The position numbers were made by a program, and so were the translations under genes. DNA of 64,000 nt. It comes from Pseudomonadota bacterium (GTDB taxonomy: Bacteria > Desulfobacterota > Binatia > Binatales > Binataceae). Under the pieces are notes generated by a model. The model worked only from the letters and a program-made list of their open reading frames with translations. It did not search any database and was not told the DNA's origin. Shown here one piece after another: positions 4,426 to 47,092 of this stretch (its first letter is position 1; each line of letters opens with the position of its first letter). The stretch covers positions 190-64,189 of the forward strand of contig JAJPHZ010000007.1 of assembly GCA_021325025.1 (NCBI GenBank). The letters run 5' to 3'.

Positions 4426-4830
4426 TTAGGCGATATCCTCGAAACGCACTTCGTCGCCGGCACGCGTGGCGGCGCGCTGTGCCGCGCCGGCCTCCAGCTC
4501 CAGGACGCTGTGCGCGCCGAGCACCGGCGCCGTCAGCCGCCATGGCTTGACGGCCGGCATCAGGCGGATGATGCGGCCGCTGCGGCCCAAAAATACCAAA
4601 TCGATAGGAAAGCGCATGAAAAAGGTGTGAATCCACAGCATCGGGAGCAGCGGTCCGGAGCCGATCAACAATCCGGCGCCGGGGGCGAGCGCCTCCCGAC
4701 CCATCAGGCCCCGGCCGCGCGCAATCGCGCTGGCGGCCTCCTCTACGGACGCACATAAAACGCTACCGCGCGTAATGTTAATCGCCCGCCTCACGCGCTT
4801 GAGGTTGCAGCAGCGTGCGCACATTTGCAA
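4426..4830 (-). CDS. DUF192 domain protein (COG1430-like)
   Basis: ARGRGLMGR...FWMKNT-like FFMRFPIDLVFL...VLELEAG pattern typical of DUF192. Confidence 0.55.
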   Translation of the reverse strand: MQMCARCCNLKRVRRAINITRGSVLCASVEEAASAIARGRGLMGREALAPGAGLLIGSGPLLPMLWIHTFFMRFPIDLVFLGRSGRIIRLMPAVKPWRLTAPVLGAHSVLELEAGAAQRAATRAGDEVRFEDIA

Positions 4831-5069
4831 GCGTCACCACCTCACGCGCGCAAGCGTCCGGACCTTGCCAGTCTTACCAACGTGGTGCGGGTGCCGCTTG
4901 GCGGCCTGCCAACTCTTTGGCGGAGCGCGGTTTGACACATAGTGACGGCCGCAGTCGCTCGTCCGATTCCGGACGCCGATTGTTCGCCGCGAACGGGCAG
5001 ATTAAGCTAATGCCGCCTCGTGCTTGGGCCGAGGCGGCGGGGAACTCTGATAGGCAAAGGAGGCCTGTG

Positions 5070-5798
5070 GTGAAACGTCGTCCCGGTTTTTGGCTAGCGA
5101 TGCTGATTGCCTGCTGTGTTGCGTGCAGCAGCGGCGTTGCGCGCGCCCAGATAAGCGTTACCGTGACCCACTCGGTCGCCATCGTGGTAAGCGGGGGTTC
5201 CAGCATCTCCGACGCCGGCGACTTCACGGTGACCAATTCCAGCGGCGCAACCATCACCATCAATTCAATCAATCTTTCGGCCACGGCGCCCGGGATTTTT
5301 TCCTCCCTGTCGATGACCGGCCAGGTGCCGGGATCCTCCGCGGTGGTGGTGCAAAGCGATCCTAATCCGCCCGGGACCTCGAACACCTTCAGCTTTGCCG
5401 CGCTGCCCGCTCTGCCCAACGGTCAGACCGCGACCTTCACACTCTCGGGGACGGCCGCTTCGTCGCCGACCGCGACTCCGTCCGCCACTTTGATCGAGCT
5501 GCAGAGAAAACACCCCACCTATGCCGGCGTGCTGTGGCCACTGCCGGGAGGGCTGAAGATGCCGGCCGGCCTGCTCACCGCCCTGGCGCTGGGAATGCTG
5601 TTGATGACCGGCAAGCTGCGCCGCCGGCATCTGATCCTGCTGGCGATCGCGATGGTGCTGGCGGCCACCGAGGTGGGATGCGGCAGTGGATCGAACTTCG
5701 GCGGAACCTCGCTTCAGACCGTGCAGACCATCACGGTCAGTTCCGGCGGCACACCCACCGGTTTGCCCGCCGAGCTGGGGTCGATCACGGTGCAGTAG
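5070..5798 (+). CDS. Putative lipoprotein with Ser/Thr-rich beta-domain and a conserved C-terminal dual-helix module shared with the S53 peptidase at 20738..23206
   Basis: AGGAGG RBS before GTG 5070. N-terminal signal with lipobox (LIACCVAC). FTVTN...ATAPGIFS...TATFTLSGTA motifs. C-terminal TM helix, RRRH, second helix ending EVGCGSGS. Confidence 0.55.
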   Translation: MKRRPGFWLAMLIACCVACSSGVARAQISVTVTHSVAIVVSGGSSISDAGDFTVTNSSGATITINSINLSATAPGIFSSLSMTGQVPGSSAVVVQSDPNPPGTSNTFSFAALPALPNGQTATFTLSGTAASSPTATPSATLIELQRKHPTYAGVLWPLPGGLKMPAGLLTALALGMLLMTGKLRRRHLILLAIAMVLAATEVGCGSGSNFGGTSLQTVQTITVSSGGTPTGLPAELGSITVQ

Positions 5799-11804: not shown

Positions 11805-13220
11805 TTACACCCGAATCGATTCGTCGCGTTTGGGCGCGCGCTTGAGTGCTTCCCAATCCACCAGCGGTTCGTATTTGGTGCCGACCACGAATGGGCGCGA
11901 GCCAGGCTCGCGCTCGAACGGGTCGACGATACCCAACTCCTTGGCGTACTCGCGCAATTCCGGCAGGATTTCCTGGCCCATCAGCCGCATGCTGTTGAGC
12001 CGCTGCTCCTTGGTCAGCGGACCCTGGGCCTGGAACAGCCCCAACACACCCGGACGCAGCACCTCCATGATCAACTTCAGTTTGGGCAGGACGGATTTGG
12101 GCGTGCCGATAATGATCTGAAATCCGGCCTGCGCCTTGCCGTAATTGGCCAGAATCTTGGCCTTGGCCTCCTCGATGCCGATCTCGCCGCGCGCCAACCG
12201 ATGGCGGGTGTCGGCCTGGCGCTTCTCCGCACGCCGTCTTGCGCGCTCCTCGGGCGATTCCTCCTCGCGCGAGCGTTTGAGCGTCTCGGAGGTGATGCCC
12301 AAAAAGCCGTAGTCGCTCTGCGACTGGAACAGGCGGCGATTAGCCTCCTTGGAGTTGTAGCCCGGCGGCAGGGTCCATTCCGGACGCGAGAAGTTGGCAC
12401 CGCCGCCGCCGAACAGCGCCGCCTTGCCCTGCTCCTGCGCCTCCTCTTCGGTGTCGGCCAGATGGACCTGTTGCAGGTAGCCGAAGTTCTCGCTGCCTGC
12501 CTGATAGCCGTGCTCGGCGGCGACCTTGCCGTAGAGGTTCCACAGGTCGACGGTCAGATGCAGCGAGGTGCCCAACCCGATGTAGGGATACTTGCGCTCC
12601 GCGCACCAGGTTACGGTCTCGCCGCTGATGATGCCGGGAATCCAGATCGGCGGACGCGGCTTTTGATACGGCAGCGTCCACGGATTGACGAAGCGATAGG
12701 TGAAGTGCTTGCCCTCCCATCGGAACGGACCCGGCCGCGTCCAGCACGCCAGCACCAGGTCGTGTGCCTCGTTGAAGTACTCGCGATTGTAGGCGGGGTT
12801 GGCGTTGTGGAAGACCTGCTCGCTGCCCGCGCCCCGCACCCATCCGGGGACCAGGCGGCCGTGCGAAATCAGGTCGATGGTGGCCAACTCCTCGGCCAGG
12901 CGCACCGGATTCTTGACGATCGGCAGCGGATTACCCAGCAGCACGATGCGCACCTTCCTGGTGATGCGCGCCAGGATCGCCGCCTCCACGTCCATCACGC
13001 CGCCCATGCAAAAGGGCGTGCCGTGATGCTCGTTGAGCATCACCCCGTCAAATCCCAGTTCCTCGGCGTAGACCGCCTCGTCGAGATACTCGTTGTAAAG
13101 GCGCGCGCCGACCTCGCGGTCGAAGTACTGGTTGGGGGTGCCGAAAAAGCTGCGGCTGCGGATGATTTCTTCTTCGGGAACCTCGCGGTAGGGACGCTCG
13201 GTGAAATACATTATGAACAT
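11805..13220 (-). CDS. LLM-class (luciferase-like) flavin-dependent oxidoreductase
   Basis: GFDGVMLNEHHGTPF... TIM-barrel LLM signature. 20 bp downstream of the alpha/beta hydrolase on the same strand, so probably an operon. Confidence 0.7.
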   Translation of the reverse strand: MFIMYFTERPYREVPEEEIIRSRSFFGTPNQYFDREVGARLYNEYLDEAVYAEELGFDGVMLNEHHGTPFCMGGVMDVEAAILARITRKVRIVLLGNPLPIVKNPVRLAEELATIDLISHGRLVPGWVRGAGSEQVFHNANPAYNREYFNEAHDLVLACWTRPGPFRWEGKHFTYRFVNPWTLPYQKPRPPIWIPGIISGETVTWCAERKYPYIGLGTSLHLTVDLWNLYGKVAAEHGYQAGSENFGYLQQVHLADTEEEAQEQGKAALFGGGGANFSRPEWTLPPGYNSKEANRRLFQSQSDYGFLGITSETLKRSREEESPEERARRRAEKRQADTRHRLARGEIGIEEAKAKILANYGKAQAGFQIIIGTPKSVLPKLKLIMEVLRPGVLGLFQAQGPLTKEQRLNSMRLMGQEILPELREYAKELGIVDPFEREPGSRPFVVGTKYEPLVDWEALKRAPKRDESIRV

Positions 13221-15489: not shown

Positions 15490-15636
15490 TGTGTCTCCTC
15501 GTTCGCCTGACGATCGACCTGTCCGCCGGTACCGGCGGCGCAACCCGCGCCCCTTTCAAACCGGCCCCGCTTTGGTATGCTCGCAACGTCAGCATCAGGT
15601 GGGACGAAACGTAACCGATTTTGGAGGTTTGCCGCT

Positions 15637-16710
15637 ATGAAAGTCGGCGCGTCGATATTCTGCCAGAACTTTTACCGCACCCAGCGTCCCGACCCCGACA
15701 TCTACCGCGAGGACCTCGCGCTGGCCGATCTGGCCGAGCCGCTGGGCTTCGATTCCCTGTGGGCGGTCGAGCATCACTTCTCGCCCTACACCATGATCCC
15801 CGACGTCACCCAGTTCCTGTCCTACCTGTGCGGACGTACCAAGCGAATCGGTCTGGCCACGATGGTGATCGTGCTGCCCTGGCATGACCCGGTGCGGGTG
15901 GCGGAAGAAATCGCGATGCTCGATCTGTTCGCGCGCGACCGCGAACTGACCCTGGGCTTCGGGCGCGGCAGCGGCCGCATCGAGTACGAAGGCTTGCGCA
16001 TCCCGATGAGCGAGTCGCGCGAGCGTTTTGCCGAAGCCGCCGAAATCGTCAAGCTGGCGCTGACCCAGGAGCGGTTTTCATTTAACGGCCAGTTCTACAA
16101 GGTCCCGGAGATGACCATCCGCCCGCGGCCGCTGCACAACAACCTGACCGAACGCTTTTACGGCGCGATCGTCAGCCCAGAAAGCGGCGAAATCATGGCC
16201 AGGGCGGGCATGGGGATGCTGATCATCCCGCAAAAGCCCTGGAGCGAGCATGCCAAGGATTATCAGAGCTACCTGGGGTCGTGCCGCAAGTTCGGCCAGC
16301 CGGGCAAGCGTCCCATCGCGGTGACCTGGGTGTACTGCGCCAAGGATGAAAAGAGTGCCGAAATCGGCCGCGACAAGTGGATGGCCAACTACGGCGAGTC
16401 AGCGCTGGTGCACTACGAGTACAACGATCCGCAGCACTTCAAGGCCACCAAGGGCTATGAGTTCCACGCCAAAATGGCGGAGGCGATGTCATCGGGCAAA
16501 GGCGGCGACGCGACGCTGTTGGGCCGCACGCAATGCTTCGGCACGCCTGAGCGATGCCTGGAAGTGCTGCGCGAGATCAAGCAGACGGTCGATGCCGAGG
16601 AGTTTGTCGGGGTGTTCAAGTACGGCGGGATGCCGCTGGAAGAGGCAGAGCGTTCCATGAAGCTGTTCGCTGCTGAAGTGCTGCCCAAAGTCCACGCCGA
16701 GAATTTCTAG
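15637..16710 (+). CDS. LLM-class flavin-dependent oxidoreductase
   Basis: GGAGG RBS. MKVGASIFCQN...GFDSLWAVEHHFS, typical LLM N-terminus. Confidence 0.75.
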   Translation: MKVGASIFCQNFYRTQRPDPDIYREDLALADLAEPLGFDSLWAVEHHFSPYTMIPDVTQFLSYLCGRTKRIGLATMVIVLPWHDPVRVAEEIAMLDLFARDRELTLGFGRGSGRIEYEGLRIPMSESRERFAEAAEIVKLALTQERFSFNGQFYKVPEMTIRPRPLHNNLTERFYGAIVSPESGEIMARAGMGMLIIPQKPWSEHAKDYQSYLGSCRKFGQPGKRPIAVTWVYCAKDEKSAEIGRDKWMANYGESALVHYEYNDPQHFKATKGYEFHAKMAEAMSSGKGGDATLLGRTQCFGTPERCLEVLREIKQTVDAEEFVGVFKYGGMPLEEAERSMKLFAAEVLPKVHAENF

Positions 16711-19191: not shown

Positions 19192-19436
19192 TTATCATCT
19201 CCTTGTGCTTATCTTTTTTGACCGAATTTCCTCACGACCCGGCGGCTAGTCCGTGGCGCCCGAGTAGCACGTGCCCGGTGAGCTGAACCGCCCAACCCAA
19301 TAATGCATCAGCCGTGCCCGCTTCGCGTCCGCAATCGGGCGCGGCGCACGACCCTTCTATCCTGACTGGACCAGCGCGCGGTTGCCAGTGGTCGCCGATC
19401 GGTGCTTTGCTGCGTCAGCCACATTGGACGGCCGAC

Positions 19437-20462
19437 ATGAAATTCGGAATCCTCTACAACATCGACTACCATCCCGAGGTGCATGGCTCCTCGGCCAGCT
19501 ACTATGCCCTGATTCTCGAGCAGATTCAGCTCCTGGAGGAATTGGGCTATGACTCCGCGTGGTTTGGTGAGCACCATTATGCGGGCTATTCTTTCGGGGC
19601 GCCGGCGGTAATTGCCACCGCGGCGGCGGGGAAAACCACCCGTCTGCGGCTGGGGACCGGGGTGTCGCTGGTGCCGCTGCACAATCCGCTGCGGCTGGCC
19701 GAGGAATACGCGATGCTCGACGTGCTGAGCAACGGCCGCTTGGAGTATGGCGTCGGACGCGGGTTCCTCAATTATGCCTATCAGCTCATGGGTGTGAATC
19801 GCTCCGAAAGCTTCGAGCGCTTCCGCGAGGGGACCGATCTGATAATTGCGGCGTGGACCGCGCAGCGCCCGTTTTCATTCCACGGCAAGTTCTGGCATCT
19901 CGACGACTATCAATTCTTTCCGCCGCCGGTGCAAAAGCCGCATCCGCCGATTTACGCGTCGGGCACCAACACCCGCGAAAGCTACGTTTACGCCGCGATG
20001 CGCGGACTTCACCTGTGCACCGCCTTCTTCATCCCGGACAAGGAAGGCGTGCGCGCCAACATCGCGCTGTATCGTAAAACTCTGGCTGAGGCCGGATACG
20101 ATCCCGCGGCGCGCGACGTAGCCGGCGTCTTTCCCATGTATTGCGGCGAGTCTCAGGCCCAGTCGATGCGCCATGGCGGCGAATTTACCTTGAACTATTT
20201 CAAGTTCTTCGGCTCGCTGGAGCGCGGTACGGATCCGACTACCGCGCGGGGGTTCGGCCACAAACCGATCGAATTTTACGATGAGCGCGGCCTCGTCCTG
20301 CTCGGCGATCCCGATTACTTGATCAAGAGAATCAAGTGGGCGGCGGAATATTACGACACCAATTACCTGCTGTTTGAAGTGGCTCAGGGTGGCGCGTCGC
20401 ACCAGGAGACGCTCCAATCGCTGCGCCGCTTCGCCCGTGAGGTCATGCCTGCCTTCAAGTAG
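19437..20462 (+). CDS. LLM-class flavin-dependent oxidoreductase
   Basis: MKFGILYNIDYHPE...GYDSAWFGEHHYAGYSF. Confidence 0.75.
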   Translation: MKFGILYNIDYHPEVHGSSASYYALILEQIQLLEELGYDSAWFGEHHYAGYSFGAPAVIATAAAGKTTRLRLGTGVSLVPLHNPLRLAEEYAMLDVLSNGRLEYGVGRGFLNYAYQLMGVNRSESFERFREGTDLIIAAWTAQRPFSFHGKFWHLDDYQFFPPPVQKPHPPIYASGTNTRESYVYAAMRGLHLCTAFFIPDKEGVRANIALYRKTLAEAGYDPAARDVAGVFPMYCGESQAQSMRHGGEFTLNYFKFFGSLERGTDPTTARGFGHKPIEFYDERGLVLLGDPDYLIKRIKWAAEYYDTNYLLFEVAQGGASHQETLQSLRRFAREVMPAFK

Positions 20463-20737: not shown

Positions 20738-23206
20738 TTAGAACACTACCGTAACGGTTCCCAGCGACGCGGGCAGCCCTGACACTTCGATGATTCCGCC
20801 CTGGCCGTCGCTCAGGATGATGGAACCCTGCGCGAGGTTTTGCATCGAATTCAGCGTCGGCCGCAAACCATTGCCACCGCTCGAGCCGCAGCCTGTGGTC
20901 CACAGCGTGGCGGCCGCGATCAGGAAAATGACGGCTGGAGAAAGGGTGAGGGGCCGGCCCGCCAGTGCAACTGCAAGCAGAATGAACGCCCCGATCAGGG
21001 CGGCATACAGCGGCAGGGTGGATTGCGGCCAACTCCCGCTGCTGTCGCTCGGCGACCGGGTCAGTGCTGCTCCCGGCGGTATGGTGGCGGCGGCGGTGGC
21101 CTCCAGGTTGAGAGTGGCAGTGGCACCTGAAGGAATTGCCAACGGCGCGCCAAGGGCGAATACGGTGGTAGCCGCCGGTACTACCGCAACCGGGGCGAAG
21201 CTTGCGCCGCCCGCGGCGCCGCTCAGCGTCAGCTTGGAAAAAATATTGGGCGCCGTTAGTGTCACGGTCACCGAATCGAGCGACAGCGTCACCGCCGTCG
21301 TGTTGGTGACGGTGAAGCTTCCCGCGTGCGCAGTAGCGGTGGGAACAATCCTGGCCGTGGACGGCGACGCCGCCGCACTCGCGCCGGGAAAGGCTGCGAC
21401 CAGTTTGGCAAAATCGGGCGTCCCCCAGCCGCTGGCGAGATCGAAGCCGGGGCCGGCCTTGTAGCCCATTATGCCGTTGTCATCGTTGTTGCCGACCGTG
21501 ATGTCGTGCAATCCGAAATCCAAATTGCGCAAGTTCCCCAATTCATACAAACGCGGATTGATATTACCCAGCCGTGCCACGCCCTGGGACTGCGCGATAA
21601 GCCGGCTCAGCCCCGCCCACATCGGGCTGGCGATGGAGGTCCCGCCTGCAGGAGCAAAGCACACCTTGTCCATGTTCTTGTCATTGCAATGTTCGAGCGT
21701 GGCTGGACGGGTGCATGGCAGTGCCCGGCAGTTGGCGATGAGAAACCCGGGCGCGTTGCCGCTTGCGCCCAGGGCGATATCGGGCACGTCCCGTACACCG
21801 TCGTCGGGCACGCCGAAACCCTTCTGCCACAGTGGTTTGGCAAACAATGTGCTCTTGCCGCCGCTGCCCGCATCCTTGACCGGGCAATGGTCTGGCCCCG
21901 CCTGGCCATCATTCCAGACCGTTTTCAGATTGTCGCTAATTACGCTGGTGTCGTTGCCGGCCTTGTCGTAGACCGGGTCGAACATGGTGCCGCCCACCGA
22001 CGTCAGATAAGGGCTCGAACTTTCCTCGTCCACGCTGGGTTGCGAAAAGGTTGCGCCCTTGGGCAGGCCGCATTTGCATTGGTCGACACGCGGTTCGGTC
22101 GGCACCGCTTTGCCGCACGGCCAGTTGGCACCGAAATCGCCTGCCGCGTGGAACACGGTCTGGCCCTGCACGACCGCCTGGAGCAGCGTCGAGTTGTAGG
22201 CCAGGATGCTCGGAACGTCGGTGCATTGTATTGAAATCGAAGCGGTTATCACCCCGCATCGATTGTCCGCTACCGCTTGAGCAACGTCGTCAAAAAAATT
22301 GCCGAGATAGAAATAGATTGGTGTATTGGGAGCGACTGCATGGGCCCACTCGGCGTCGAGGTACGCCTCGCCATGACCGCTCAGGCCGGGATTGGTCCCA
22401 TTGACCAGAACCCGCGTCAGTATAATCGGCGGCAGGCCAAACTGGTCGTCGAAGGCAGCCAGAGCATTGTCGTTGACATCGCTGTTTTCCGCCATCGCTA
22501 TACAATCCGGAGTACCGGTGCCGCGGTTGCCGCCCGAAATAAGTGGCTTCACATCGTAGAATGTGTAGAGGTCGGGCGGTCCAAAGGCGGTTCCCACACC
22601 CGCAAGTGTAACGTCAGGAACAGGTCGCGCACCCTCAGCGGACGCCTGCTGGAATCTGCTCAAGCCTAAAATCGCCTGGATGACAGAGGCCAAATCGGCC
22701 GGCATTACGGGATCGTCCCGATTGGCATAACTGCTCCCGTCGCCAACGAGCACCGTCTGAAACGCGCGCTCCACAGTGTCGACATCGCCGCTGAAGTCAA
22801 TGCTGCGTTTACGGATGTCGCTGGCCGTCACCTGTAATCCCTGGCTGCGAAGCCATCCCGCCACCGCTTTCATCTGCGCCGGTGTGGGACCAAAACGGCT
22901 GACGAACTCCTCCGTCGTCAGCCATCGATGGTAACTGGGCGAATCGCGATTCTGCAGGTTGGCTTCCAGCTTCGTCAATTGATCAATATTGCGCAGCGTC
23001 AGGATCGCCCGCAGATGGAGGACCTGATTCGCGGCAAGCGGCTGCCAATCATCGGGAACATAGGCCGGATGGTTGTTGAGGATTGGCGTGCCACCCCCAG
23101 CGGACGCGCTACAGCGCAACGCACCAGCATATATCAGCGCCAGAGCGATCCCGACCGCCACGGCGGTCAGCCTGCGTATCGCAAACCAGGAATTGTCAAT
23201 GCGCAT
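20738..23206 (-). CDS. S53-family (sedolisin/kumamolisin-like) serine peptidase with pro-domain and a roughly 230-aa C-terminal extension carrying the FTVTN / dual-helix / GCGS module
   Basis: Signal peptide MRIDNSWFAIRRLTAVAVGIALALIYAGA. Pro-kumamolisin-like activation region. Catalytic Ser motif AGGTSIASPMWAGL. C-terminal tail homologous to ORF 5070..5798. Confidence 0.7.
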   Translation of the reverse strand: MRIDNSWFAIRRLTAVAVGIALALIYAGALRCSASAGGGTPILNNHPAYVPDDWQPLAANQVLHLRAILTLRNIDQLTKLEANLQNRDSPSYHRWLTTEEFVSRFGPTPAQMKAVAGWLRSQGLQVTASDIRKRSIDFSGDVDTVERAFQTVLVGDGSSYANRDDPVMPADLASVIQAILGLSRFQQASAEGARPVPDVTLAGVGTAFGPPDLYTFYDVKPLISGGNRGTGTPDCIAMAENSDVNDNALAAFDDQFGLPPIILTRVLVNGTNPGLSGHGEAYLDAEWAHAVAPNTPIYFYLGNFFDDVAQAVADNRCGVITASISIQCTDVPSILAYNSTLLQAVVQGQTVFHAAGDFGANWPCGKAVPTEPRVDQCKCGLPKGATFSQPSVDEESSSPYLTSVGGTMFDPVYDKAGNDTSVISDNLKTVWNDGQAGPDHCPVKDAGSGGKSTLFAKPLWQKGFGVPDDGVRDVPDIALGASGNAPGFLIANCRALPCTRPATLEHCNDKNMDKVCFAPAGGTSIASPMWAGLSRLIAQSQGVARLGNINPRLYELGNLRNLDFGLHDITVGNNDDNGIMGYKAGPGFDLASGWGTPDFAKLVAAFPGASAAASPSTARIVPTATAHAGSFTVTNTTAVTLSLDSVTVTLTAPNIFSKLTLSGAAGGASFAPVAVVPAATTVFALGAPLAIPSGATATLNLEATAAATIPPGAALTRSPSDSSGSWPQSTLPLYAALIGAFILLAVALAGRPLTLSPAVIFLIAAATLWTTGCGSSGGNGLRPTLNSMQNLAQGSIILSDGQGGIIEVSGLPASLGTVTVVF

Positions 23207-23613
23207 CGTACTCCTGCAAAATGCGGCGTTCAGAATATGTGCGGCAGAGAGATTAGCGGGAGCTTACGACATTATTTGATTTCACTCCGATCCCCTTTGT
23301 TGGGCGTTCATTTCTAACGACATAGCTGGGTGAGTCAATGGCGAAAAACGGGCACGAATGACAGGCTGAGGCTGCGACGCGAATGTCCATTTACTACGTT
23401 CGCGACGATCCTTTCAGGCAAGTGCCTTGGGCACGCTTGTTGCGTTGTAGGTGCGGGCGCGCGTTACACGCGCAAAGGGCGGTACGATTGCGACCCGCTA
23501 ATGTTTTTCGCTTGCCATAGGAGGAGAAGGCATCGCGCAGCGCGCGATGCGCGACAATGGCCGCCTTACTTTCAGATCCGACGCGTCGTGTTTCCATCAG
23601 CGCCATCGAGACC

Positions 23614-25896
23614 ATGCCAATCGTGGCGTTCCCGCTCACGATCTTCCTGGGGGCCTTCCTGCTGTTCGCAGTCGAGCCGATGATGGGCAAGGTCCTGCTG
23701 CCGTGGTTCGGCGGGGCGCCGTCGGTCTGGACGACCTGCATGCTTTTCTTCCAATTGCTGTTACTGGGTGGGTATGCCTACGCGCATGTGATCGCCACCG
23801 CCTTGCCTCCCCGCGCGCAGGCGAGTTTGCACCTGATGCTGGCGGCGCTCTGTATGGCGTCGATGACGGCTGCCGCGATAGTGTGGCGCTCACCCCTGAT
23901 ACCTCCGGCCGACTGGAAACCGGCGAGTCCCGAGTATCCCGCCCTGGGCATCCTGGCAATTCTGTTTACGGCGGCCGGATTGCCATATTTCACCCTGTCG
24001 GCGACCGCTTCGCTGCTGCAGCAGTGGTTCGCCGCCAGCCGCGCCGGCCGCTCGCCGTACCGTCTCTATGCACTGTCGAATCTTGGCTCGATGCTTGGAC
24101 TGGCCGCTTACCCGTTCCTCCTCGAACCCAGCCTCAACCTGCATCAACAGGCAATGCTCTGGTACTGGCTTTATGTCCTCTTCGCCTTGGGGCTTGCCTT
24201 GTCGGCGCTGTCATTGTGCGGTGGTGGCGCAGTCCCGGTAGCGCGCGCCGCAGCCTCAAGCCCTCAACCGCCGATCGAACTGGGCACCCAGTTGATGTGG
24301 GTTGCCCTGGCGGGGTGCGCCTCATTGATGTTTTTAGCGGTTACCAATCAGCTTTGCCAGGACATCGCCGCAGTTCCGTTCTTGTGGGTGTTGCCCCTGG
24401 GAATCTACCTGCTGTCGTTCGTCGTCTGCTTCGGCAATGAAAGTTGGTATCGGCGGGCAATTTTCAATCCCGCGCTGGCTGTTGCGATCGTCGCGTCGTG
24501 CGCCATCCTCTACCGCCCGTATACCGAAATCGTTTGGCAGGCCGTAATCTATTCGTTGCTGGTCGGTTCCTCATGCACGGTGTGTCACGGCGAGTTGGTC
24601 AGGCTCAAACCCGCACGTGGTGCCCTGACTCGATTCTATCTGATGGTCTCCGCCGGCGGAGCGCTGGGCGGATTGCTCAGTGCGGTACTGGCTCCGTGGC
24701 TGTTCCGTGGATACTGGGAACTGCATATTGCTATCTGGGGATGCGCCGCGCTGCTGTTCGTGGCATTGATGCGCGACCCTGCTTCGTGGCTTCATCAACC
24801 ACGCCCCATCCTCGCGATTGGGCTGCTCGCCGGCGCGCTGGCGCTGCCGGAACTAATATTGGCTGCGGCCGGCAACCTGACCTCCGCGCTATATTACAAT
24901 CTGACCGCGGGCTGGGCACTGATGGTGGTGGTTGGCGCGATACTGGCACGGCGCGACCGCAGGCGGACCGAGCAAAAGCGCGGCTTTGCGCCGGTGGCCG
25001 CCGCCGCGGTACTGCTGATGGTAGCCAGTGTGCTGCTGTCCAGTATTACCGCCAAACTCAACAACAGTCTGATTTCGATACGCAACTTTTACGGCGCCGC
25101 GGCGGTGATCGAGCGCGATGCTGCCGATCCCGCCTGGCATGCGTTTGTGCTGCGCCACGGCAGTATCGTGCACGGTGTCCAATATTCCGAGCCCGACAAG
25201 CGGCGCCAGCCCACGGCCTATTTCGGTCCAACCAGCGGTATAGGCCTGCTCATGCTCCACCATCCGCGGCGCATTTCGGTGGACCCGCGCGTGCGGACGG
25301 TGCGCGTTGGAGTGGTTGGTTTGGGCATCGGCACCATCGCCACCTACGGACGTCCCGGCGACTATATTCGCTTTTACGAAATCAATCCCGCGATTATCCA
25401 TCTTGCCACCGCGCGCAACGGTTACTTCAGCTACGTGCGCGACTCCCAGGCGCGGGTTGACATCGTGGCGGGCGACGCGCGTCTTTCAATGGAACGGGAG
25501 GTTAGGGATCAAAACGCACAGCGCTTCGACATCCTGGTGATCGACGCGTTCAGCGGGGACGCCATACCGGTTCATCTTCTGACCATCCAGGCCTTTGCTC
25601 TTTACCTCAGGGAGTTGAATCCCGACGGAGTCCTGGCACTGCACATCAGCAACAACCATCTCGATCTGAGGCCGGTGGCCGCGCGTCTGGCGAATCATTT
25701 CGGTCTACGCGGTGGATGGATTCACAGCGTGGCCGCGGACAGGATGACTCAACCCAGCGACTGGGTCGTGCTTGCGCGCGGCGCCAGTGTGCTGGCGCAG
25801 CCGGCCATCGCTTCGCAGTTAAGGCCGCTTGCGAGCGATGCGACTGTGGGTTTGTGGAGCGACGATTACAGCAACCTGTTCCGGATTCTGCGTTGA
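23614..25896 (+). CDS. Fused MFS-like polytopic membrane domain / spermidine-synthase-like methyltransferase-fold protein
   Basis: About 12 N-terminal hydrophobic helices. C-terminal ILVIDAFSGDAIPVHLLTIQAF, a spermine/spermidine synthase-like motif. Confidence 0.65.
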   Translation: MPIVAFPLTIFLGAFLLFAVEPMMGKVLLPWFGGAPSVWTTCMLFFQLLLLGGYAYAHVIATALPPRAQASLHLMLAALCMASMTAAAIVWRSPLIPPADWKPASPEYPALGILAILFTAAGLPYFTLSATASLLQQWFAASRAGRSPYRLYALSNLGSMLGLAAYPFLLEPSLNLHQQAMLWYWLYVLFALGLALSALSLCGGGAVPVARAAASSPQPPIELGTQLMWVALAGCASLMFLAVTNQLCQDIAAVPFLWVLPLGIYLLSFVVCFGNESWYRRAIFNPALAVAIVASCAILYRPYTEIVWQAVIYSLLVGSSCTVCHGELVRLKPARGALTRFYLMVSAGGALGGLLSAVLAPWLFRGYWELHIAIWGCAALLFVALMRDPASWLHQPRPILAIGLLAGALALPELILAAAGNLTSALYYNLTAGWALMVVVGAILARRDRRRTEQKRGFAPVAAAAVLLMVASVLLSSITAKLNNSLISIRNFYGAAAVIERDAADPAWHAFVLRHGSIVHGVQYSEPDKRRQPTAYFGPTSGIGLLMLHHPRRISVDPRVRTVRVGVVGLGIGTIATYGRPGDYIRFYEINPAIIHLATARNGYFSYVRDSQARVDIVAGDARLSMEREVRDQNAQRFDILVIDAFSGDAIPVHLLTIQAFALYLRELNPDGVLALHISNNHLDLRPVAARLANHFGLRGGWIHSVAADRMTQPSDWVVLARGASVLAQPAIASQLRPLASDATVGLWSDDYSNLFRILR

Positions 25897-28747: not shown

Positions 28748-29003
28748 GGTTCATCAGCCTCCTCGATCGGCGATGTTGCGGCCGCTTTAAAAATGATGCC
28801 GGTGCCGTGCTGCCCGGCCAATATAGTGACCGCAACGGGCGCGGTCCACCTTGTCATCGAAGGTAGGCTCCCATACCATGCGAGCGAGACTTCCAAAGCG
28901 GGGTTCTTTGAGCAGATAGAATTGCCCGGCGCGATTGCCCAATAGCGGCCCATGGGCGGCAAACGATGAGCGTTGGCCGGCGGCAAGCGACAGGTTCATT
29001 CAG

Positions 29004-30293
29004 GTGAAGCGCAAAAAGATGATTCGAGGAGCAGTGCTGGCACTGACGCTGGCCTTTGGTCTGTTCCATCATGAACGTGCATGCGCGGCGCAAGCGGGTC
29101 TGAGCCTCTCACAACTGGTGACGATCGGGCTACAGGCCAATCCCCAGGTGCGTGCGGCGCGGGCCCGATGGTACGCCGCATCGCACAACATCCGGCAGAA
29201 CTATGCGCCCGCCGATCCGGTCTTTACATTTCTCAACGAGGACAGTCCGAATAATCCGTTTTTCGTCAAGCCGACCCTGCAGAGCTTCCAGGTAACCCAG
29301 GCCCTGCAGTTTCCGGGCAAGGGTTATCTGCAGGCGCAGTCTGCGTCGCGCACGGCGGAGATAGCGCGTCTGATATACGAGGCCGCCGTCCGCGACGTCC
29401 GCGCCCAGGTGGAAGCCGGTTACTACCAGCTCCTGCTGGATTCCGCGCTGATCGGCGTGGCGCAGGAAAATGTAGTCAACCTGCGCCAGGTGCTGAATGT
29501 GGCGCAGGTTGCGTATGCCGCAAACCGCGTGACACAGACCGATTTTGTCAACGCCGAATTCGCGCTGGCAGCGGCGCAGCAGACCCAACGCCAACTGGAA
29601 GTCGCCAGGTCCAACGACCGCACCGCACTGAACGCGCTGCTTTACCGCCGGCCCGATGAACCGCTGCAAGTGGCCGGCGCACTTGAGCTGTCGGGGATCA
29701 AAACCGGCCTGGATCAGTTGATCGAGCTCGCCCAGTCCTCGCGCCAGGAAATTCTGGAAGCCGCATTGACTGAGCGCAATTCACAAACCGCGCTGATCCT
29801 GGCCAAGCTGGAATATGCCCCCGATTACACGCTGGGCTATACATTCGACCATTACCTGCTGGCGAGCGCGGGCCCTGCTCCGACCTTCCTGCAGGACCAT
29901 ACGATTTCGATCGGACTCAACGTGCCGATTTTCTTCTGGCTCAGGCAACGCGAAGACAACGCGCGCGCAAGCTATGACCTTGAGGCAGCGCGCGAGGATC
30001 TCAATTCGGTGATCAATCAGACCGGCGCGCAGGTAACCACGCTCTACCGCCAGGCGCAATTTGCCTACGCGACGGCCAGGCTGTATCGCGATACGCTTAT
30101 ACCGCTGGCGCGCCAGGCGTTCGCGGTCGCGCTGGTTTCCTACACCAACGGCAAAATCGATTTCGTCACGTTAATCAATACGTTTCGCCAGCACAGCGAT
30201 GCCCGGGTCGCCTACCTGCAATCGGTCAACCAGGCATTGGCGCAGCGCATCGCGCTGGAACAGGCCGTGGGCCGGCCGCTGCCGCAGAAATAG
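29004..30293 (+). CDS. TolC-family outer membrane efflux protein
   Basis: Signal peptide, LSLSQLVTIGLQANPQV start of TolC repeat, duplicated coiled-coil/beta structure, roughly 430 aa. Confidence 0.7.
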   Translation: MKRKKMIRGAVLALTLAFGLFHHERACAAQAGLSLSQLVTIGLQANPQVRAARARWYAASHNIRQNYAPADPVFTFLNEDSPNNPFFVKPTLQSFQVTQALQFPGKGYLQAQSASRTAEIARLIYEAAVRDVRAQVEAGYYQLLLDSALIGVAQENVVNLRQVLNVAQVAYAANRVTQTDFVNAEFALAAAQQTQRQLEVARSNDRTALNALLYRRPDEPLQVAGALELSGIKTGLDQLIELAQSSRQEILEAALTERNSQTALILAKLEYAPDYTLGYTFDHYLLASAGPAPTFLQDHTISIGLNVPIFFWLRQREDNARASYDLEAAREDLNSVINQTGAQVTTLYRQAQFAYATARLYRDTLIPLARQAFAVALVSYTNGKIDFVTLINTFRQHSDARVAYLQSVNQALAQRIALEQAVGRPLPQK

Positions 30294-33026: not shown

Positions 33027-35075
33027 TTATCGCCCGTGCGCCAACAACGCGGAGAGTTCCTCGGCCAGGCCCGAGAAGCGCTGGATGCCGCGGCTGATGC
33101 CGATACGCAACAGTTCTTCGGATCCGGCGATCACCGCCGAGCGGCGGCTGCGCGTGACTGCCGTGTACAGCGCTTCGCGCGTCAGCAGCGGCAAGTCGCG
33201 CTCGGGCAGCACGACCGCGACCGCGTCGAACTCCGAGCCCTGCGCCTTGTGAATCGTGGTCGCGTAGCATAGTTCGATCGATTCGCGCAGTGCCGCGAGA
33301 TGGAACGCAACGAACCGGTCCTCGCGCCTGAACACCGCCATTGGCGCCGCGCGTCCGCCGGGCCGGCGGATGCGGACGATCACGCCCTGATCGCCGTTGA
33401 ACAGCATCCGCTCATAGTCGTTGCGCACCACGATGACGGGTTCGCCGGGCAGAAATTCCCGCTCAGAGGCGGCCGCGCCGGCGGCCTCTGAGCGCCGCCG
33501 ATGCAGCGCCGCATTGACACGCTCGGAGCCGGTGGAAAGGACACGCGTGAAGCACAAGATGCGCGAGGCGGCCAGGTGATCGAAAATCCGCCGCAACGCG
33601 GCTTGCGCCTTCGCGTCGAAGCCGTTTTCATCCTGCTCGACGTCCTGTGCGCACAGTTTCTCCACGTCGTCCGCCTTGATGCGCGCCGCATACCATCGGT
33701 TTAAAAATGCTTCCATAAGTCCGGTGCCGCCTAGAAACTCCACACCCGCAAACTGCAGTGCTTCCGGACCCTCACGCCGGACCATACCCTGGTCCGCGCC
33801 GCCCCGCGGCGCCGCCAGGTTTTGATCGGCCAGGTTGATCGCGCGCGCCACGGAGAAAACGGCGCGGCCGGCGGGATCGCCGGTATCCATCCGATAGCTG
33901 TGAGTCAGCCGCGTGCATAGACCCGGGTAGCGGCGGCGGTGCGCCTGCACCTGGGCGGCGCCCACCAGGTCGCGGAAGACCGCGCCCGCCGCAACCGACG
34001 GAAGCTGATCGGCGTCGCCGAGCAGGATCAACCGCGCATCGGGTTTCAACGCGCCCACCAGCCGCTCCATCAGGGAGAGATCGAGCATCGAGCCCTCATC
34101 CACGATCACGACGGCCGCCTCCAACGGGTTGTTGCGATGATAAGTGAAGCGCCCGCGGGTGGGCGAAAAGCCGAGCAGGCGATGGATTGTGCAGGGCTCA
34201 AGGCGAGCCTCCCTGAGCGCGCGGTCCGCCGCGGCGGGTGCCGCGATTCGCTCCAGGCCCTGGCCGATGCTCTCGCCCATGCGGAAGGCCGCCTTGCCGG
34301 TCGGTGCGGCCAGCGCGATCTGCCTGGGCGCGATTCCGATTCTGACCAGCATGCGCAAAATCGCCACGATAATCGACGTCTTGCCGGTGCCTGGTCCGCC
34401 GGAGATCAGCGCCAGAGCCTGCCCCGCGGCGTTGGCAACCGCGGCGCGCTGCTCGGCAGACAGCGCCACGGAGAGCATGCCCGGGCGCGCCGCCGTGTCG
34501 GCCAGCGCGGCCTCCAGCTTGCCGGTATCGGCTGGCTGTGGCTGCGCGATACGGTCAGCGAGCAGGCGCGCCAGCCGCACCTCCGCGCAGCGCACGCGAT
34601 GGTGATAAATGAAGGGGGGCAGGTAGATCAGCGGGCGATGGTCCTCGGGCGTGCGGCCGATGACGTGCGGGGCCAGGTCGGACTCGAGCAGGTGCGCGAT
34701 TGCCTGGAGCATGGCCTCCGCCGCGTCTGAGTCTGAGGAGTCGGCGCACAACGGCGCCAGCAGCCGGCGCATCGGCTCGCCCGACTCCTTGCCTGTAACC
34801 GGCAACCGGGTGCTGCCTTCCTGCAAGGCCGCAAGCGATGCGGTGACCAGCCCGATCAGCGCCAGGCGCTGCTCGTCGTCAAGGTCCGGCTCGAGGGAGG
34901 CGATTTCGGCCGCCAGGTGGACCGCCGGCGGATCGAGGTTGAGGTCGGCCGCGCCCGCTTCCATTCGGTGCAGGCGCCGCCTGAACTCCGCCTCGCGGCC
35001 CTGGGCGCCGTCGCCCATCTGATGGCGGAGCCAAATTGTCGCTATTCCCAACTGCCTGTAGCGCTGCTCGATCAT
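33027..35075 (-). CDS. recD: Exodeoxyribonuclease V alpha subunit
   Basis: Walker A ISGGPGTGKTS, VIVDEGSMLDL, ATTIHKAQGSEFD. Overlaps recB by 4 nt. Confidence 0.85.
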   Translation of the reverse strand: MIEQRYRQLGIATIWLRHQMGDGAQGREAEFRRRLHRMEAGAADLNLDPPAVHLAAEIASLEPDLDDEQRLALIGLVTASLAALQEGSTRLPVTGKESGEPMRRLLAPLCADSSDSDAAEAMLQAIAHLLESDLAPHVIGRTPEDHRPLIYLPPFIYHHRVRCAEVRLARLLADRIAQPQPADTGKLEAALADTAARPGMLSVALSAEQRAAVANAAGQALALISGGPGTGKTSIIVAILRMLVRIGIAPRQIALAAPTGKAAFRMGESIGQGLERIAAPAAADRALREARLEPCTIHRLLGFSPTRGRFTYHRNNPLEAAVVIVDEGSMLDLSLMERLVGALKPDARLILLGDADQLPSVAAGAVFRDLVGAAQVQAHRRRYPGLCTRLTHSYRMDTGDPAGRAVFSVARAINLADQNLAAPRGGADQGMVRREGPEALQFAGVEFLGGTGLMEAFLNRWYAARIKADDVEKLCAQDVEQDENGFDAKAQAALRRIFDHLAASRILCFTRVLSTGSERVNAALHRRRSEAAGAAASEREFLPGEPVIVVRNDYERMLFNGDQGVIVRIRRPGGRAAPMAVFRREDRFVAFHLAALRESIELCYATTIHKAQGSEFDAVAVVLPERDLPLLTREALYTAVTRSRRSAVIAGSEELLRIGISRGIQRFSGLAEELSALLAHGR

Positions 35076-38000
35076 CGCGCGGCCGCCTCGCTCTCCAAAC
35101 GCATCAGTGCGGCTTCGTAGGTGCAGACCTCCGTCCAGGCAGGGCGATGGAAATAGACGCCGGTGCGTCCGCCGCCGTCCATCCCGCGCAGGAAAATGTA
35201 CAGCAGTCCGCCAAACCGCCGGTAATCCTGCTCGCTGTTGATGTGCAGCAGGCGCAGCACGCCAATGGAATAGATGAGCGCCTGGGTCTGGTAGTGGTTT
35301 CTGACATGCGCCTCTATCGGCGCACGCTCATAGGAGGGAAGCTGGTCGCTTTTCCAGTCGGCGAAGTAGATCAACCCGTTGTGCTCAAACACGAAGTCCA
35401 CGAAGCCCTTGAGATAACCGCGCTCGACCGTCCATTTGCCGCCTGCCGACGAACCAAGCATCCGATGGCCCGCCTCGGGGATCGGATAGACGAATTCCAT
35501 CTCCCGCACGCTGCGGCATCGGTAAAGCGGACCGATGCGGTTGTGTTCCGAAATCACGATCGGAGCGGCGAGGGCGTTGAACACGATTTGGGTGCCGCGT
35601 TCGAACCACGCCTGCTGATCCCTGACCTGATTGCGGCGCATGGCGCCATAAAACAGCCCCTTGACGTCGTCGCGCTCGCGCCAGCACCCGAGGTCCGGCG
35701 CCGCCGCGAAGGAATCCATCGCCACCTTCTCGATCACCTCATGCAGGAACAGGCCGACGGCACGCCCGCCGGGAAGGTCCCGCTCGTCGGGCGGCATCTC
35801 AAGATCGCCCTTGAATTCCTCGACGGGAATGTTCCAGCCCGCCTCCTCCGCCCCCGATGCGCGCAGCGAAGTGTAGGAGCGCATTACGAGCGGGGTGCGC
35901 AGGCGCCTTAGATTCCACAACGCCGCCTCGTGCTCGGCGTCTTTGCGATCGTCCATCAGCGCCTGCGGCGGTCTCCATCGCAGGAGTCTGTCAGCGAGTT
36001 CAGCGTCGCCGGTGGTTACCTCCACAGGCTCGGCTACGTTGTGGATGGTAAACAGTTTGGACAGTTGCCCATCCTTCGCATCGTGCGCAACCGTCTGTAG
36101 GCGGTTGTTGAGCGCAGCGTAATAGCCGTTCAGCCTGTTGGTCGCGCCGTCGGGCAGCAGCGGCAGGTAAAGGCGCACCCGCGCCCGCGTCAACGCGACG
36201 TACAGCAGGCGGCGCTCCTCGTCTTCCTCCTCCGATTTCAACGCCTGCCTGGCGCGGTCCTTGGCCGCCTTTCCGATCGCAAAGCGGCGGTTGCCGTCTT
36301 CGTCATGATAGACGGCCAGCTTGCGAATATCGGGAATGCGGCCGAATCCGCCGAACAAGGCCACGACGTCGGCTTCCAGTCCCTTGCTCATGTGGACGGT
36401 AATCACGGAGACCGCGTCGCGTTCGCTCTCCAGGCGCTGGATGTTGGAATCCTCGAGCTCGGGCGCGGCCCGTTCGGAGATGTAGTCCTCGAGCAGCGCG
36501 ATGATTTCGGGCAGTGCCAGCCGGCGGCCCATTGCCGCCGCCAGCAGGATCTCGAAGATGTGCTCATAGTTGGTCAATCGCCGCTCGCTGCCCGACAAAA
36601 ACAGCTCGCGCGCCGCCACGCCACTGTCATGGAGCAGATGCTGGAACAGTTCGGCAAAGCGTTGACGTTCGGCGAGCGCCTTCCACTCGTACAGGCGTTC
36701 ATTGAGCGGATGGGCGGGCTGGATGTCGCCCAGCAGCGCCACTTCGCGCAGCGGCACGGCAAAAAACGGCGACAACCACGCCTTGAGGCGATGGGAGCGG
36801 ATGTGCGGCTGCGCAATCGCGCGCAGCACGTCGAGGACATGGCCGGCTTCGGAAGTTTGAAACAGCCCCTCCTGCTTGTAGAAAGCGAACGGCACCCGCG
36901 CCTCGCGCAGATACTCGCCGATCTCGGCGCTTTCCTGGCGGGTGCGGGTTAACACGAAGATACCTTTTGCGCCCACGAGCCGGGGCGGCGCGCCATCCTC
37001 TTCGATCGTGATGCGCTCGCCGGGCTCGTCCAGCAAGCGGCGCAATTCGCGGGCCAGATGGCGTCCGATGGCGCGACGGATTTCGGGAACCGACGCCTTT
37101 TGCAGGTCGGCTCTCTGGTAGCGCATCAGGATTACCGGTGTGATCGGCTTTGCGCCGGCGTCGATCGCCCGGCGATCGGGGCGCCCGCAGCGCACCGGCC
37201 GGTCATACCTTATCCGGCTGTTTTGGAACAGCGGATTGGCCGCGTTCGGATCGAAGATATGATTGCACGCCTTGATCAGGTCTTCGGTGGAGCGGAAGTT
37301 ATCGGCCAGTTCGACCGGCGGGTTGCCCCCCGTCAACTCGGCGCGCGCCTTCAGATAAGTAAAGACGTCGGCGCCGCGAAAGGCGTAGATGGCTTGTTTG
37401 GGATCGCCCACGACGTAAAGCCGCGCGCCGCCGCACTCGACAAACAGCCGGCGGAAGATCCGCCATTGCAAGTCGTCGGTGTCCTGGAATTCGTCGACCA
37501 GCGCGCAGCGGAAGCGAGCGCGCAACGCGGCAGCCAGCGCCGGACCGCCCGGGCCGTCGAGCGCCCGCCATACCCACGCCAGCATGTCGTCGTAATCGAT
37601 CAGTCCGTGCTCGCGTTTGTCGCGCTCCAGCCGATCCCTGATCGGCGGAAGAAAGGCGTCGACCACCCTCCATTCCGGCGACGTTGCCGCGACTGACACC
37701 TCGACCAGGGTCGACATCAGGCGGCCGGCCGCCCCGGAGAACTTCAGTTCCCTTTTGAGCCCGCGGTCGCCGCCAAACAACGCATCGAATTTGATCGATT
37801 CAAGCAGATCGAGCAGCCGCTCAGGCGACCCGCCGGACTCTTCGATGCTGCCTTGCACGTCGTCGACGAGCTTCAGCACGCGACGCAGCGGCTCGGGTCT
37901 GAGCGCTGAGTGCCGGCACGCTTCGCGCAGCGTCTGTGCGTTGAATCCCGCCAGTAAGCGCTCGGCGGTGCGCACCCGCTCGCCGAAGTCGCAGGAGTCC

Positions 38001-38602: not shown

Positions 38603-38618
38603 CGCGCAGCCTCTCGCC

Positions 38619-45875: not shown

Positions 45876-45994
45876 CGAACAACGTAGCTACTACTTCATA
45901 GCGGGCCGCTTCAAGATTCCGCGAACGCGGCGAAACCCCCGCTCTGGCCGGCGCGAAACTCTTTGCTCCGTAGCGCGCCGGCACGTTCGGGTTG

Positions 45995-46546: not shown

Positions 46547-46556
46547 ATATCTTCGG

Positions 46557-47063: not shown

Positions 47064-47092
47064 TGCATTCGTCCACCGTCAAACGCTCCCGG

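Follow-up and report, generated by a model that had tools for sequence, protein, structure and literature searches.

Background

New enzymes of envelope biogenesis have repeatedly been found by way of C-terminal sorting signals such as LPXTG, PEP-CTERM and MYXO-CTERM. This work concerns a C-terminal module in two proteins encoded on a 64,000-nucleotide stretch of DNA from a Binataceae bacterium (contig JAJPHZ010000007.1, positions 190 to 64,189, forward strand), which is called the window throughout. One is a 242-residue protein made of a signal peptide and the module, encoded at 5070-5798, and the other is an 822-residue S53 peptidase which carries the module at its C-terminal end. The module looks like an unpublished way to tether exported enzymes to the cell envelope.

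Among published systems, MYXO-CTERM and related Cys-containing tripartite signals come closest. In MYXO-CTERM a Cys within a GCG(C) motif lies at the membrane surface, before a single transmembrane (TM) helix. Lipidation of this Cys has been proposed, with Lgt the foremost candidate enzyme, and myxosortase removes the helix (PMC11980579; 10.1101/2023.06.07.544157). The “inverted topology” of this Cys, compared with normal Lgt substrates, is a noted difficulty (PMC11980579). Like MYXO-CTERM, the module is a C-terminal tag on many unrelated secreted proteins of one lineage, with an invariant Cys in G-C-G, predicted to be at the outer face of the inner membrane, beside a TM helix and an Arg cluster (PMC11980579; 10.1101/2023.06.07.544157). 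The order is different: in MYXO-CTERM the Cys precedes the single helix and the Arg cluster ends the protein, whereas the module has two helices, places its Cys after the second, and continues into a conserved tail that is predicted to be folded. MYXO-CTERM and related models gave no match to the module, and no CPBP protease is encoded nearby.

The tripartite signals in general (LPXTG, PEP-CTERM, PGF-CTERM, GlyGly-CTERM and MYXO-CTERM) differ from the module in that 55-100 residues follow its Arg cluster. PEP-CTERM, the exosortase signal, resembles it in placing a TM helix with an Arg cluster close to the C-terminal end of secreted proteins, but the module has no PEP motif and the window has no exosortase. 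Midcut-by-XrtH (NF033207) is alike in that a sorting signal can have more sequence after it. Only 3 of 50 module tails match this model, weakly (E ~1e-3, far below its cutoff), and the matches are explained by TM and Arg composition.

Read from its Arg cluster on, the module also resembles an ordinary lipoprotein signal peptide of the Lgt/LspA/Lnt pathway. It has a basic n-region, a hydrophobic h-region of 15-18 residues (within the usual 7-22), small residues at -1 and -2, an invariant Cys and a Gly/Ser tether, and its second helix is predicted to lie N-in/C-out, the orientation on which Lgt and LspA act. The initial annotation had likened the second helix and its GC to an internal lipoprotein signal, and these features, with Gly at -1 in 93% of sequences, agree with that comparison. 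The differences are that the Cys is internal (residue 204 of 242, and 773 of 822) and not within about the first 15-35 residues, that a membrane helix precedes it, that Gln or Glu frequently replaces Leu at position -3, and that the “mature lipoprotein” left by cleavage would be a peptide of only 30-78 residues.

A curated model of an apparently similar architecture exists in NCBIfam release 20.0. NF058595, “invert_tail”, is a hidden Markov model (HMM) described as “lipo-invert putative C-terminal anchoring domain”, with a cutoff of 37 bits. Its name conveys the same idea, a lipoprotein-type site after a topology inversion, and so implies a helix, a basic cluster, a second helix and a Cys in that order. 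It too is C-terminal on unrelated proteins, and its match covers the linker, first helix, basic cluster, second helix, Cys and tail (about positions 2-109 of 113). For the 242-residue protein the score is 17.5 bits (E=0.0038), and the S53 protein at full length has no match. Matches were obtained for 9 of the 20 sequences of alignment A1 (homologues of the small protein plus the S53 tail), for 4 of 10 large members (19.6-27.5 bits), and for 45 of 50 isolated tails at E<=0.01, the best at E=1.1e-8. No per-protein score seen reaches 37 bits, so NCBI names the Binataceae members as hypothetical proteins or by their passenger domain. The other weak NCBIfam matches of the tails are only to lipoprotein families (LppK, SCO4651, LpqN) and to midcut_by_XrtH.

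The initial annotation had stated that the module is not a known sorting signal. This holds for PEP-CTERM, LPXTG and PGF-CTERM, whose models in NCBIfam and Pfam gave no match, and was too strong in view of the NF058595 matches. The Binataceae module is a divergent variant, specific to its lineage, of an anchor that is curated but uncharacterised; the architecture had apparently been noticed by the curators already. The HMM does not include the upstream beta-sandwich, which in the Binataceae family is obligatory and is predicted to bind the tail; the new element here is this predicted completion of the sandwich by the residues after the Cys. A literature search found no paper that describes NF058595 or the Binataceae module, and neither Pfam families nor sequences in the PDB matched the module.

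One module in two proteins

The likeness between the end of the small protein and the end of the S53 peptidase, first seen in the initial annotation, is borne out by BLASTP. Residues 49-241 of the former align with residues 628-820 of the latter, some 195 aligned residues, at 35% identity and with E=3e-16 under composition-based statistics. The blocks that had been listed are all present: FTVTN, TAPxIFSxL, PxGxTAT, a helix, a basic/Pro patch, a second helix running to GCGS, and an end of the form GLPAxLGxxTV. In the small protein the Ser/Thr-rich region carries FTVTN, IFSSLSMTG and TATFTLSG, and the first hydrophobic stretch after the YAG linker is AGLLTALALGMLLMTG. Hydropathy gives three hydrophobic segments in both proteins, namely the signal and two helices, TM1 and TM2. 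By tblastn and motif scan the window holds exactly two copies of the module, and their likeness is homology and not composition.

The 822-residue protein is a real S53 peptidase, judging by its match to Pro-kuma_activ (PF09286, E=7e-25) and by its best solved relatives in the PDB, which are tripeptidyl-peptidase 1 (TPP1, E=4.7e-17) and sedolisin.

From its N-terminal side the module consists of a beta-sandwich, a YA motif, TM1, an Arg cluster, TM2, an invariant G-C-G, a Gly/Ser spacer and a tail of two strands, about 215 residues in all, and it is a real, transferable single unit. In an alignment of 50 sequences, whose mean identity is about 30%, the Cys never varies. The Gly on either side of it, an Arg in the turn, the YA-motif Ala, and the S-x-Q and G-x-P of the tail are invariant or at least 90% conserved. 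The RRR cluster is conserved across the family between the two hydrophobic segments, and both helices are kept in all members. No second conserved Cys occurs in this alignment.

Positions around the Cys were counted in 100 sequences, all of which have the Cys. Upstream are L at -7, A at -6 and -5, T, A or G at -4, Q, E or A at -3, V, A or L at -2 and G at -1 (93%). Downstream are G at +1 (86%) and then G, S and N. From the last Arg or Lys to the Cys the median distance is 18 residues (range 15-23), and the hydrophobic stretch between is 15-18 residues long. The tail after the Cys, which the initial annotation had put at 40 residues, exists; its length is 38 residues in the small protein and 49 in the S53 protein, and the family median is 45.

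The linker upstream of TM1 (5457-5558 in the small gene, and its equivalents in the family) carries the motif [VI]-x-[YF]-A-[GSA], 12-25 residues before the helix, and the rest of the linker is variable. This motif could be a second cleavage or recognition site.

Spread of the family and its passengers

An exhaustive search of 1.84 billion representative sequences with a profile of just the tail found 90 representative clusters at E<=1e-3. Word-indexed searches with the tail and module profiles mostly gave fragments or the same orthologues, and it was the exhaustive search that was informative. Searches for loci used the narrower alignments A4 and A7, which gave 8 and 7 loci respectively. The 90 clusters dispose of a concern raised in the initial annotation, that the similarity might be low-complexity or that no further copies might exist.

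The module match ends within 25 residues of the C-terminus in 86 of 89 representatives, whose sizes run from about 235 residues (signal peptide and module only) to about 1150. The passengers are unrelated to each other and are domains of extracytoplasmic type. They include S53 peptidases (P0071, which is the S53 protein of the window, P0142, P0150 and P0137), an NHL repeat protein (P0088), BNR/F510_1955-like glycosidase folds (P0104 and P0148), a Kelch/GlxA-like protein (P0109), a choice-of-anchor Q protein (P0093) and arrays of Ig-like domains, Big-like in type (P0105 and P0144). Every cluster member that carries an organism name comes from Candidatus Binataceae. Members with complete N-termini have a hydrophobic signal which ends in an A-x-A(-Q)-type site. 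With a profile of the whole mature protein, the beta-domain and the tail are always found together in full-length members.

For annotation, the family accounts for a conserved “hypothetical protein” of Binataceae, and it flags secreted hydrolases of an uncultured soil lineage as cell-attached and not free.

A subfamily (P0047, P0048, P0061, P0062, P0073 and P0075, also seen at loci L007 and L008) has SSDQQ in the tail instead of S(S/T)TQ, and an extra Ser/Gly/Pro/Thr extension of 10-25 residues beyond the final strand, so the module need not end the protein exactly. In four other members (P0079, P0096, P0118 and P0129) extra cysteines stand just past the invariant one, in CGDCSGSLFGC, CDPCGSC, CDPCPSC and CDPCPVC respectively, and they recall the paired cysteines of MYXO-CTERM. 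One hit, the 1417-residue repeat protein P0081, was rejected as a false positive; it has multiple partial matches of near-zero bits and is absent from the matches of the A3 module profile at E<=1e-5.

Separate small genes for a tail-only lipoprotein, “split” forms with RRR, TM2, Cys and tail, were also considered and rejected. The database entries of 68-101 residues that suggest them are gene-calling artefacts. In the two entries that were checked, P0052 and P0055, an antisense open reading frame (ORF) had been called across the module gene's 5' half, and on the contig of P0052 tblastn shows the full 242-residue frame. At loci L020-L023 (for example L021, 1535-2020, minus strand) the gene caller likewise chose an antisense ORF of 150-167 residues and called only the last 75-91 residues of the module protein. 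Such calls are the origin of spurious tail-only database entries, among them P0052 and P0055.

The small gene and its product

The longest frame around the small gene is 4815-5798, and the GTG at 5070, with an AAGGAGG Shine-Dalgarno sequence 7 nt upstream, is the real start. The GC content at third codon positions (GC3) is 0.80 across 5070-5798 versus 0.62 for the in-frame upstream extension 4815-5069, and the identical 242-residue product is found in the gene calls of public assemblies. The database holds 48 orthologues at 55-100% identity, most of them at 55-82% and from metagenome-assembled genomes (MAGs) of Candidatus Binataceae.

One explanation of all of the above would be that the similarity is compositional, a product of Ser/Thr/Ala/Gly-rich sequence with hydrophobic stretches, or that the ORF is not a gene. 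The sequence is indeed rich in S, T, A and G, and some gene callers do prefer the antisense ORF over its 5' half and call the tail only, as described above. But the BLASTP E-value includes a composition correction, 50 diverse sequences share invariant and near-invariant columns, and the module stands in register at the C-terminus in 90 clusters. The GC3 of the sense frame, a confident AlphaFold model and a gene order conserved in at least six Binataceae MAGs, both described below or above, speak against it as well. We regard this explanation as already refuted, with next to no chance of being right.

The initial annotation had called the product a small lipoprotein. The N-terminal signal, with C15, C16 and C19, does contain a canonical-looking lipobox, L-I-A-C. 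These N-terminal cysteines (LIAC, VAC) are not conserved, and the orthologues P0039, P0047 and P0048 have none. An A-x-A-Q site of the signal peptidase I type is kept in the orthologues instead, with G22, A24, A26 and Q27 nearly invariant in alignment A1, and the description as an N-terminal lipoprotein is not upheld. The protein could in principle carry lipid at both ends, and the conservation of these residues speaks against it. Y151 and A152 of the linker are invariant among the orthologues.

Predicted structure of the module

The module was modelled with AlphaFold2 from the 50-sequence alignment. As a control, the contiguous hairpin and tail were modelled with the same 50 sequences trimmed. 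The full module reached a mean predicted local distance difference test score (pLDDT) of 84 and a predicted template modelling score (pTM) of 0.70. In the model a beta-sandwich of eight strands (pLDDT 90-98, E3-105 by module numbering) is followed by a linker that is disordered (about 50), by two helices matching TM1 and TM2 (68-82), and by a tail with two strands, E188-199 and E210-217, at pLDDT 93-97. In the control, which has no beta-domain, both helices stay, the tail is a coil with pLDDT 41-59 and the pTM is 0.31. The tail is confident only when the beta-domain is present, so its predicted structure depends on the beta-domain.

The simplest reading of the two models is that the strands after the Cys are predicted to belong to the beta-sandwich. 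The TM hairpin would then be an insertion between strand 8 and strands 9-10 of a single domain, with both halves outside the cytoplasm. The initial annotation had listed the beta-domain and the tail as separate items; given that they always occur together and that the tail is predicted to be part of the sandwich fold, they are better treated as one. A Foldseek search of the PDB with the model gave weak similarity to jelly-roll and carbohydrate-binding-module-like folds only.

A sandwich built from both sides of the hairpin also fits a chain that is never cut, and a two-helix anchor inserted in a loop of the sandwich is an alternative to be weighed here. It would have no lipid and no cleavage, the protein would stay in the inner membrane as a single chain, and the Cys would have another role at the membrane surface, for example in an intermolecular disulfide or in metal binding. 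A hairpin is sufficient by itself to anchor a protein, both helices are kept in all members, and the lipobox is non-canonical in most of them. Yet one TM helix would do for anchoring, which leaves the strict second helix, the G-C-G and the Gly/Ser tether unexplained. An intramolecular disulfide would need a second conserved Cys, which the family lacks, and the matches to the “lipo-invert” model and to lipoprotein signal regions point to lipoprotein-type processing. We think that a plain hairpin is unlikely.

A proposed inverted lipoprotein anchor

The reading that we prefer, and hold with middling confidence, is that the region is a modular C-terminal envelope-anchoring domain which acts as an “inverted lipoprotein” anchor. 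In the predicted topology the passenger and beta-domain are outside, the Arg cluster is cytoplasmic, and the Cys is again outside together with the tail. The precursor would be exported via Sec by its ordinary N-terminal signal peptide, and transfer would be stopped by TM1, running out to in, with the Arg cluster left in the cytoplasm. TM2 would then re-insert N-in/C-out and bring the (A/V)-G-C-G to the outer face of the inner membrane, as in a lipoprotein signal peptide. There the invariant Cys would most likely be diacylglycerylated by Lgt, and signal peptidase II might cut before it. The 30-50 residues after the Cys, with their two beta-strands, would insert into the upstream beta-sandwich and so lock the lipid-bearing tail to the passenger. 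Secreted enzymes would as a result be tethered by a lipid or a hairpin at their C-terminal end. What we infer from the sequences and the model is the lipidation, the cleavage, which enzymes act, and whether the protein ends up in the inner or the outer membrane.

Several features of the family would be explained by the inverted anchor. If the tail is part of the sandwich and the Cys is lipidated, the beta-domain would be obligatory. The conserved second helix would have a role where one helix would suffice for anchoring. Its use on S53 pro-enzymes which lose an N-terminal pro-domain would also make sense. Kumamolisin, sedolisin and TPP1 shed their N-terminal pro-domain on activation, and a lipid at the N-terminus could therefore not retain S53 peptidases.

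The Cys region was compared with the PROSITE lipoprotein pattern {DERK}(6)-[LIVMFWSTAG](2)-[LIVMFYSTAGCQ]-[AGS]-C and with the lipobox [LVI][ASTVI][GAS]-C. In the window the S53 copy (W-T-T-G-C) passes and the small protein (T-E-V-G-C, with E at -3) fails. The sequence examined holds too few N-terminal lipoprotein candidates for an organism-specific lipobox consensus.

A number of observations weigh against the inverted anchor. The PROSITE pattern fits only 39 of the 100 representatives, Q or E stands at -3 in 46%, and the site is thus non-canonical. The Arg cluster is reduced to a single Arg in the turn of the S53 copy. The Gly at +1 and the L-A-A-T at -7 to -4 are conserved beyond what a generic lipobox needs, and this could point to a dedicated recognition enzyme. 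No signal of the signal peptidase II type is known to work from a position 200-1100 residues inside a protein. If the chain were cut at the Cys, the passenger would remain on the TM1-TM2 hairpin, and the lipid would then add nothing unless the linker were cleaved as well. The docking of the tail rests on AlphaFold confidence values and not on coordinates, and mean-field direct coupling analysis of 86 module sequences (effective number 46) was uninformative on contacts between tail and sandwich, its top pairs being mostly gap or subfamily signal.

A more elaborate version of the lipid anchor would include that second cleavage. Signal peptidase II would cut at G|C, the resulting triacylated lipopeptide of 30-80 residues would be held in the split beta-sandwich by beta-strand complementation, a second cut in the YA linker would discard the hairpin, and hand-over to Lol would bring a two-chain enzyme to the outer membrane or the cell surface. 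We put this forward only as an improbable extension. If true, it would be a new diderm route to lipid-anchor proteins whose N-termini are free or removed, for example S53 pro-enzymes.

The conservation around the Cys leads to a further alternative, that the module is a sorting signal cut, and perhaps transferred to an acceptor, by a dedicated enzyme whose gene lies elsewhere in the Binataceae genomes. It could for instance be a CPBP/Rce1-like relative of myxosortase, a rhombosortase or an exosortase, acting on LAAT(Q/E)VGCG, on YA(G/S)-TM1-RRR, or on both. The succession of YA motif, TM1 and Arg cluster follows the tripartite plan that is classic for C-terminal sorting signals (10.1101/2023.06.07.544157), and GCG is also the core of the MYXO-CTERM signature cut by myxosortase (PMC11980579). 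The motif flanking the Cys shows more conservation than generic lipoboxes do, with a polar Q or E at -3, the family is restricted to Binataceae, as expected if signal and enzyme co-evolve, and there are the weak matches to midcut_by_XrtH. On the other hand, no candidate enzyme adjoins the copies examined, in the window or in 23 loci, and no known sorting-signal model was matched. The Cys is located after a membrane helix and not before one, the Arg cluster is not C-terminal, and the YA motif lies 12-25 residues from TM1 at a variable spacing, unlike known signature motifs. We consider a dedicated enzyme a doubtful explanation.

The initial annotation had proposed looking for a co-occurring sortase, exosortase or rhomboid-like enzyme. 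No sortase, exosortase, rhomboid or CPBP protease gene was found in the 64-kb window or beside the copies in 23 loci, where the surroundings are of a housekeeping kind only. The lack of a dedicated sortase-like gene beside any copy examined is consistent with processing by general machinery, as the inverted anchor supposes.

If the inverted anchor is right, the module would add a different solution to those of the known sorting signals: a hairpin turns the chain, which could open a site near the C-terminus to the universal lipoprotein machinery, with no dedicated sortase. By analogy with MYXO-CTERM, the hairpin would restore the canonical orientation and would remove the topology difficulty noted for that system. 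The module bears on the question, raised by MYXO-CTERM, of whether Lgt lipidates a Cys outside N-terminal signal peptides. The family offers a concrete set of substrates for it, at least 90 clusters, including a minimal protein of 242 residues that is signal peptide and module only.

Genomic context

The small gene sits in a housekeeping gene order of Binataceae: a divergent DUF192 gene, the module protein, a Bcp peroxiredoxin, xseA and xseB. The order is conserved in at least six Binataceae MAGs. The pairing of the DUF192 (COG1430) gene with the module gene is itself kept in at least six Binataceae MAG loci; this may reflect no more than shared gene order in closely related genomes, or else a functional link. 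No function is known for DUF192. The neighbours of the S53 gene are a luciferase-like monooxygenase gene and, divergently oriented, a gene for a fused MFS/spermidine-synthase-like membrane protein. The latter product is a polytopic protein of 779 residues with a spermidine-synthase-like C-terminal domain; it matches NF037959 “fused MFS/spermidine synthase” at 40.8 bits, just at the cutoff, and has no Pfam match. A TolC-type OEP gene in the window indicates that the organism is diderm and has an outer membrane. The positions of these and other features are listed in Table 1.

Table 1. Features of the two module genes and of other genes in the window.
Feature	Position	Strand	Residues	Basis or remark
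DUF192 (COG1430) gene	4426-4830	-		divergent from the module gene
Stand-alone module protein gene	5070..5798	+	242 aa + stop	signal peptide and module, no passenger domain
N-terminal Sec signal peptide, MKRRPGFWLAMLIACCVACSSGVARA	5070..5147	+	1-26	predicted signal peptidase I site ARA|Q (Q27 next); hydropathy peak
C15, C16, C19, lipobox-like L-I-A-C	5112-5126	+	15-19	within the N-terminal signal
Beta-sandwich domain (FTVTN, IFSSL, TATF motifs)	5148..5456	+	~27-129	eight predicted strands, AlphaFold pLDDT 90-98
Pro/Thr/Ser linker (YAG; Y151-A152 motif)	5457..5558	+	~130-163	pLDDT ~50
TM1, MPAGLLTALALGMLLMTG	5559..5612	+	164-181	predicted stop-transfer helix, out to in; hydropathy, helix in both AlphaFold models
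Basic turn KLRRRH, predicted cytoplasmic	5613..5630	+	182-187	R184, R185, R186, H187 invariant in orthologues
TM2, LILLAIAMVLAATEVG	5631..5678	+	188-203	h-region/lipobox-like, predicted in to out; motif scan, AlphaFold helix
Cys204, candidate lipidation site	5679..5681	+	204	invariant in alignments A1, A3, A6; 100/100 in position count
Gly/Ser spacer (GSGSNFGG) and 30-aa tail (TSLQTVQTITVSSGGTPTGLPAELGSITVQ)	5682..5795	+	205-212; 213-242	S-x-Q, GLP, G-x-I-T-V conserved
Luciferase-like monooxygenase gene	11805-13220	-		
Luciferase-like monooxygenase gene	15577-16710	+		
Luciferase-like monooxygenase gene	19314-20462	+		
S53 (sedolisin/kumamolisin-type) peptidase gene	20738..23206	-	822 aa	N-terminal signal, pro-domain 55-185, catalytic domain to ~604, C-terminal module
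Module copy in S53 peptidase	20741..21331	-	626-822	BLASTP; hmmsearch with family profile, 134.7 bits, profile positions 4-214; motif scan; hydropathy
S53 copy, TM1	21010-20957	-	733-750	
S53 copy, R/P turn		-	751-757	
S53 copy, TM2	20935-20891	-	758-772	
S53 copy, Cys773	20890-20888	-	773	tail follows, residues 774-822
Polytopic membrane protein gene	23557-25896	+	779 aa	divergent neighbour of the S53 gene
TolC-type OEP gene	28935-30293			
RecBCD-type operon	33027-42203	-		
RecD-like helicase	33027-35075	-		
UvrD/RecB-like	35072-38602	-		
RecC/Exonuc_V_gamma	38619-42203	-		
Small cytochrome c gene	45411-45887	-		region 45411-48277
Methylamine-dehydrogenase heavy-chain-like beta-propeller gene	47093-48277	-		region 45411-48277
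Luciferase-like monooxygenase gene	54054-55022	-		

Elsewhere in the window there is a three-gene operon of the RecBCD type, and a gene for a beta-propeller protein like the methylamine dehydrogenase heavy chain lies near a small cytochrome c gene. Four luciferase-like monooxygenase paralogues occur within the 64 kb. The window also has two amidohydrolase_2 genes, a CoA-transferase III gene and an HpaB-like hydroxylase gene, and the neighbourhood is rich in genes of oxidative catabolism.

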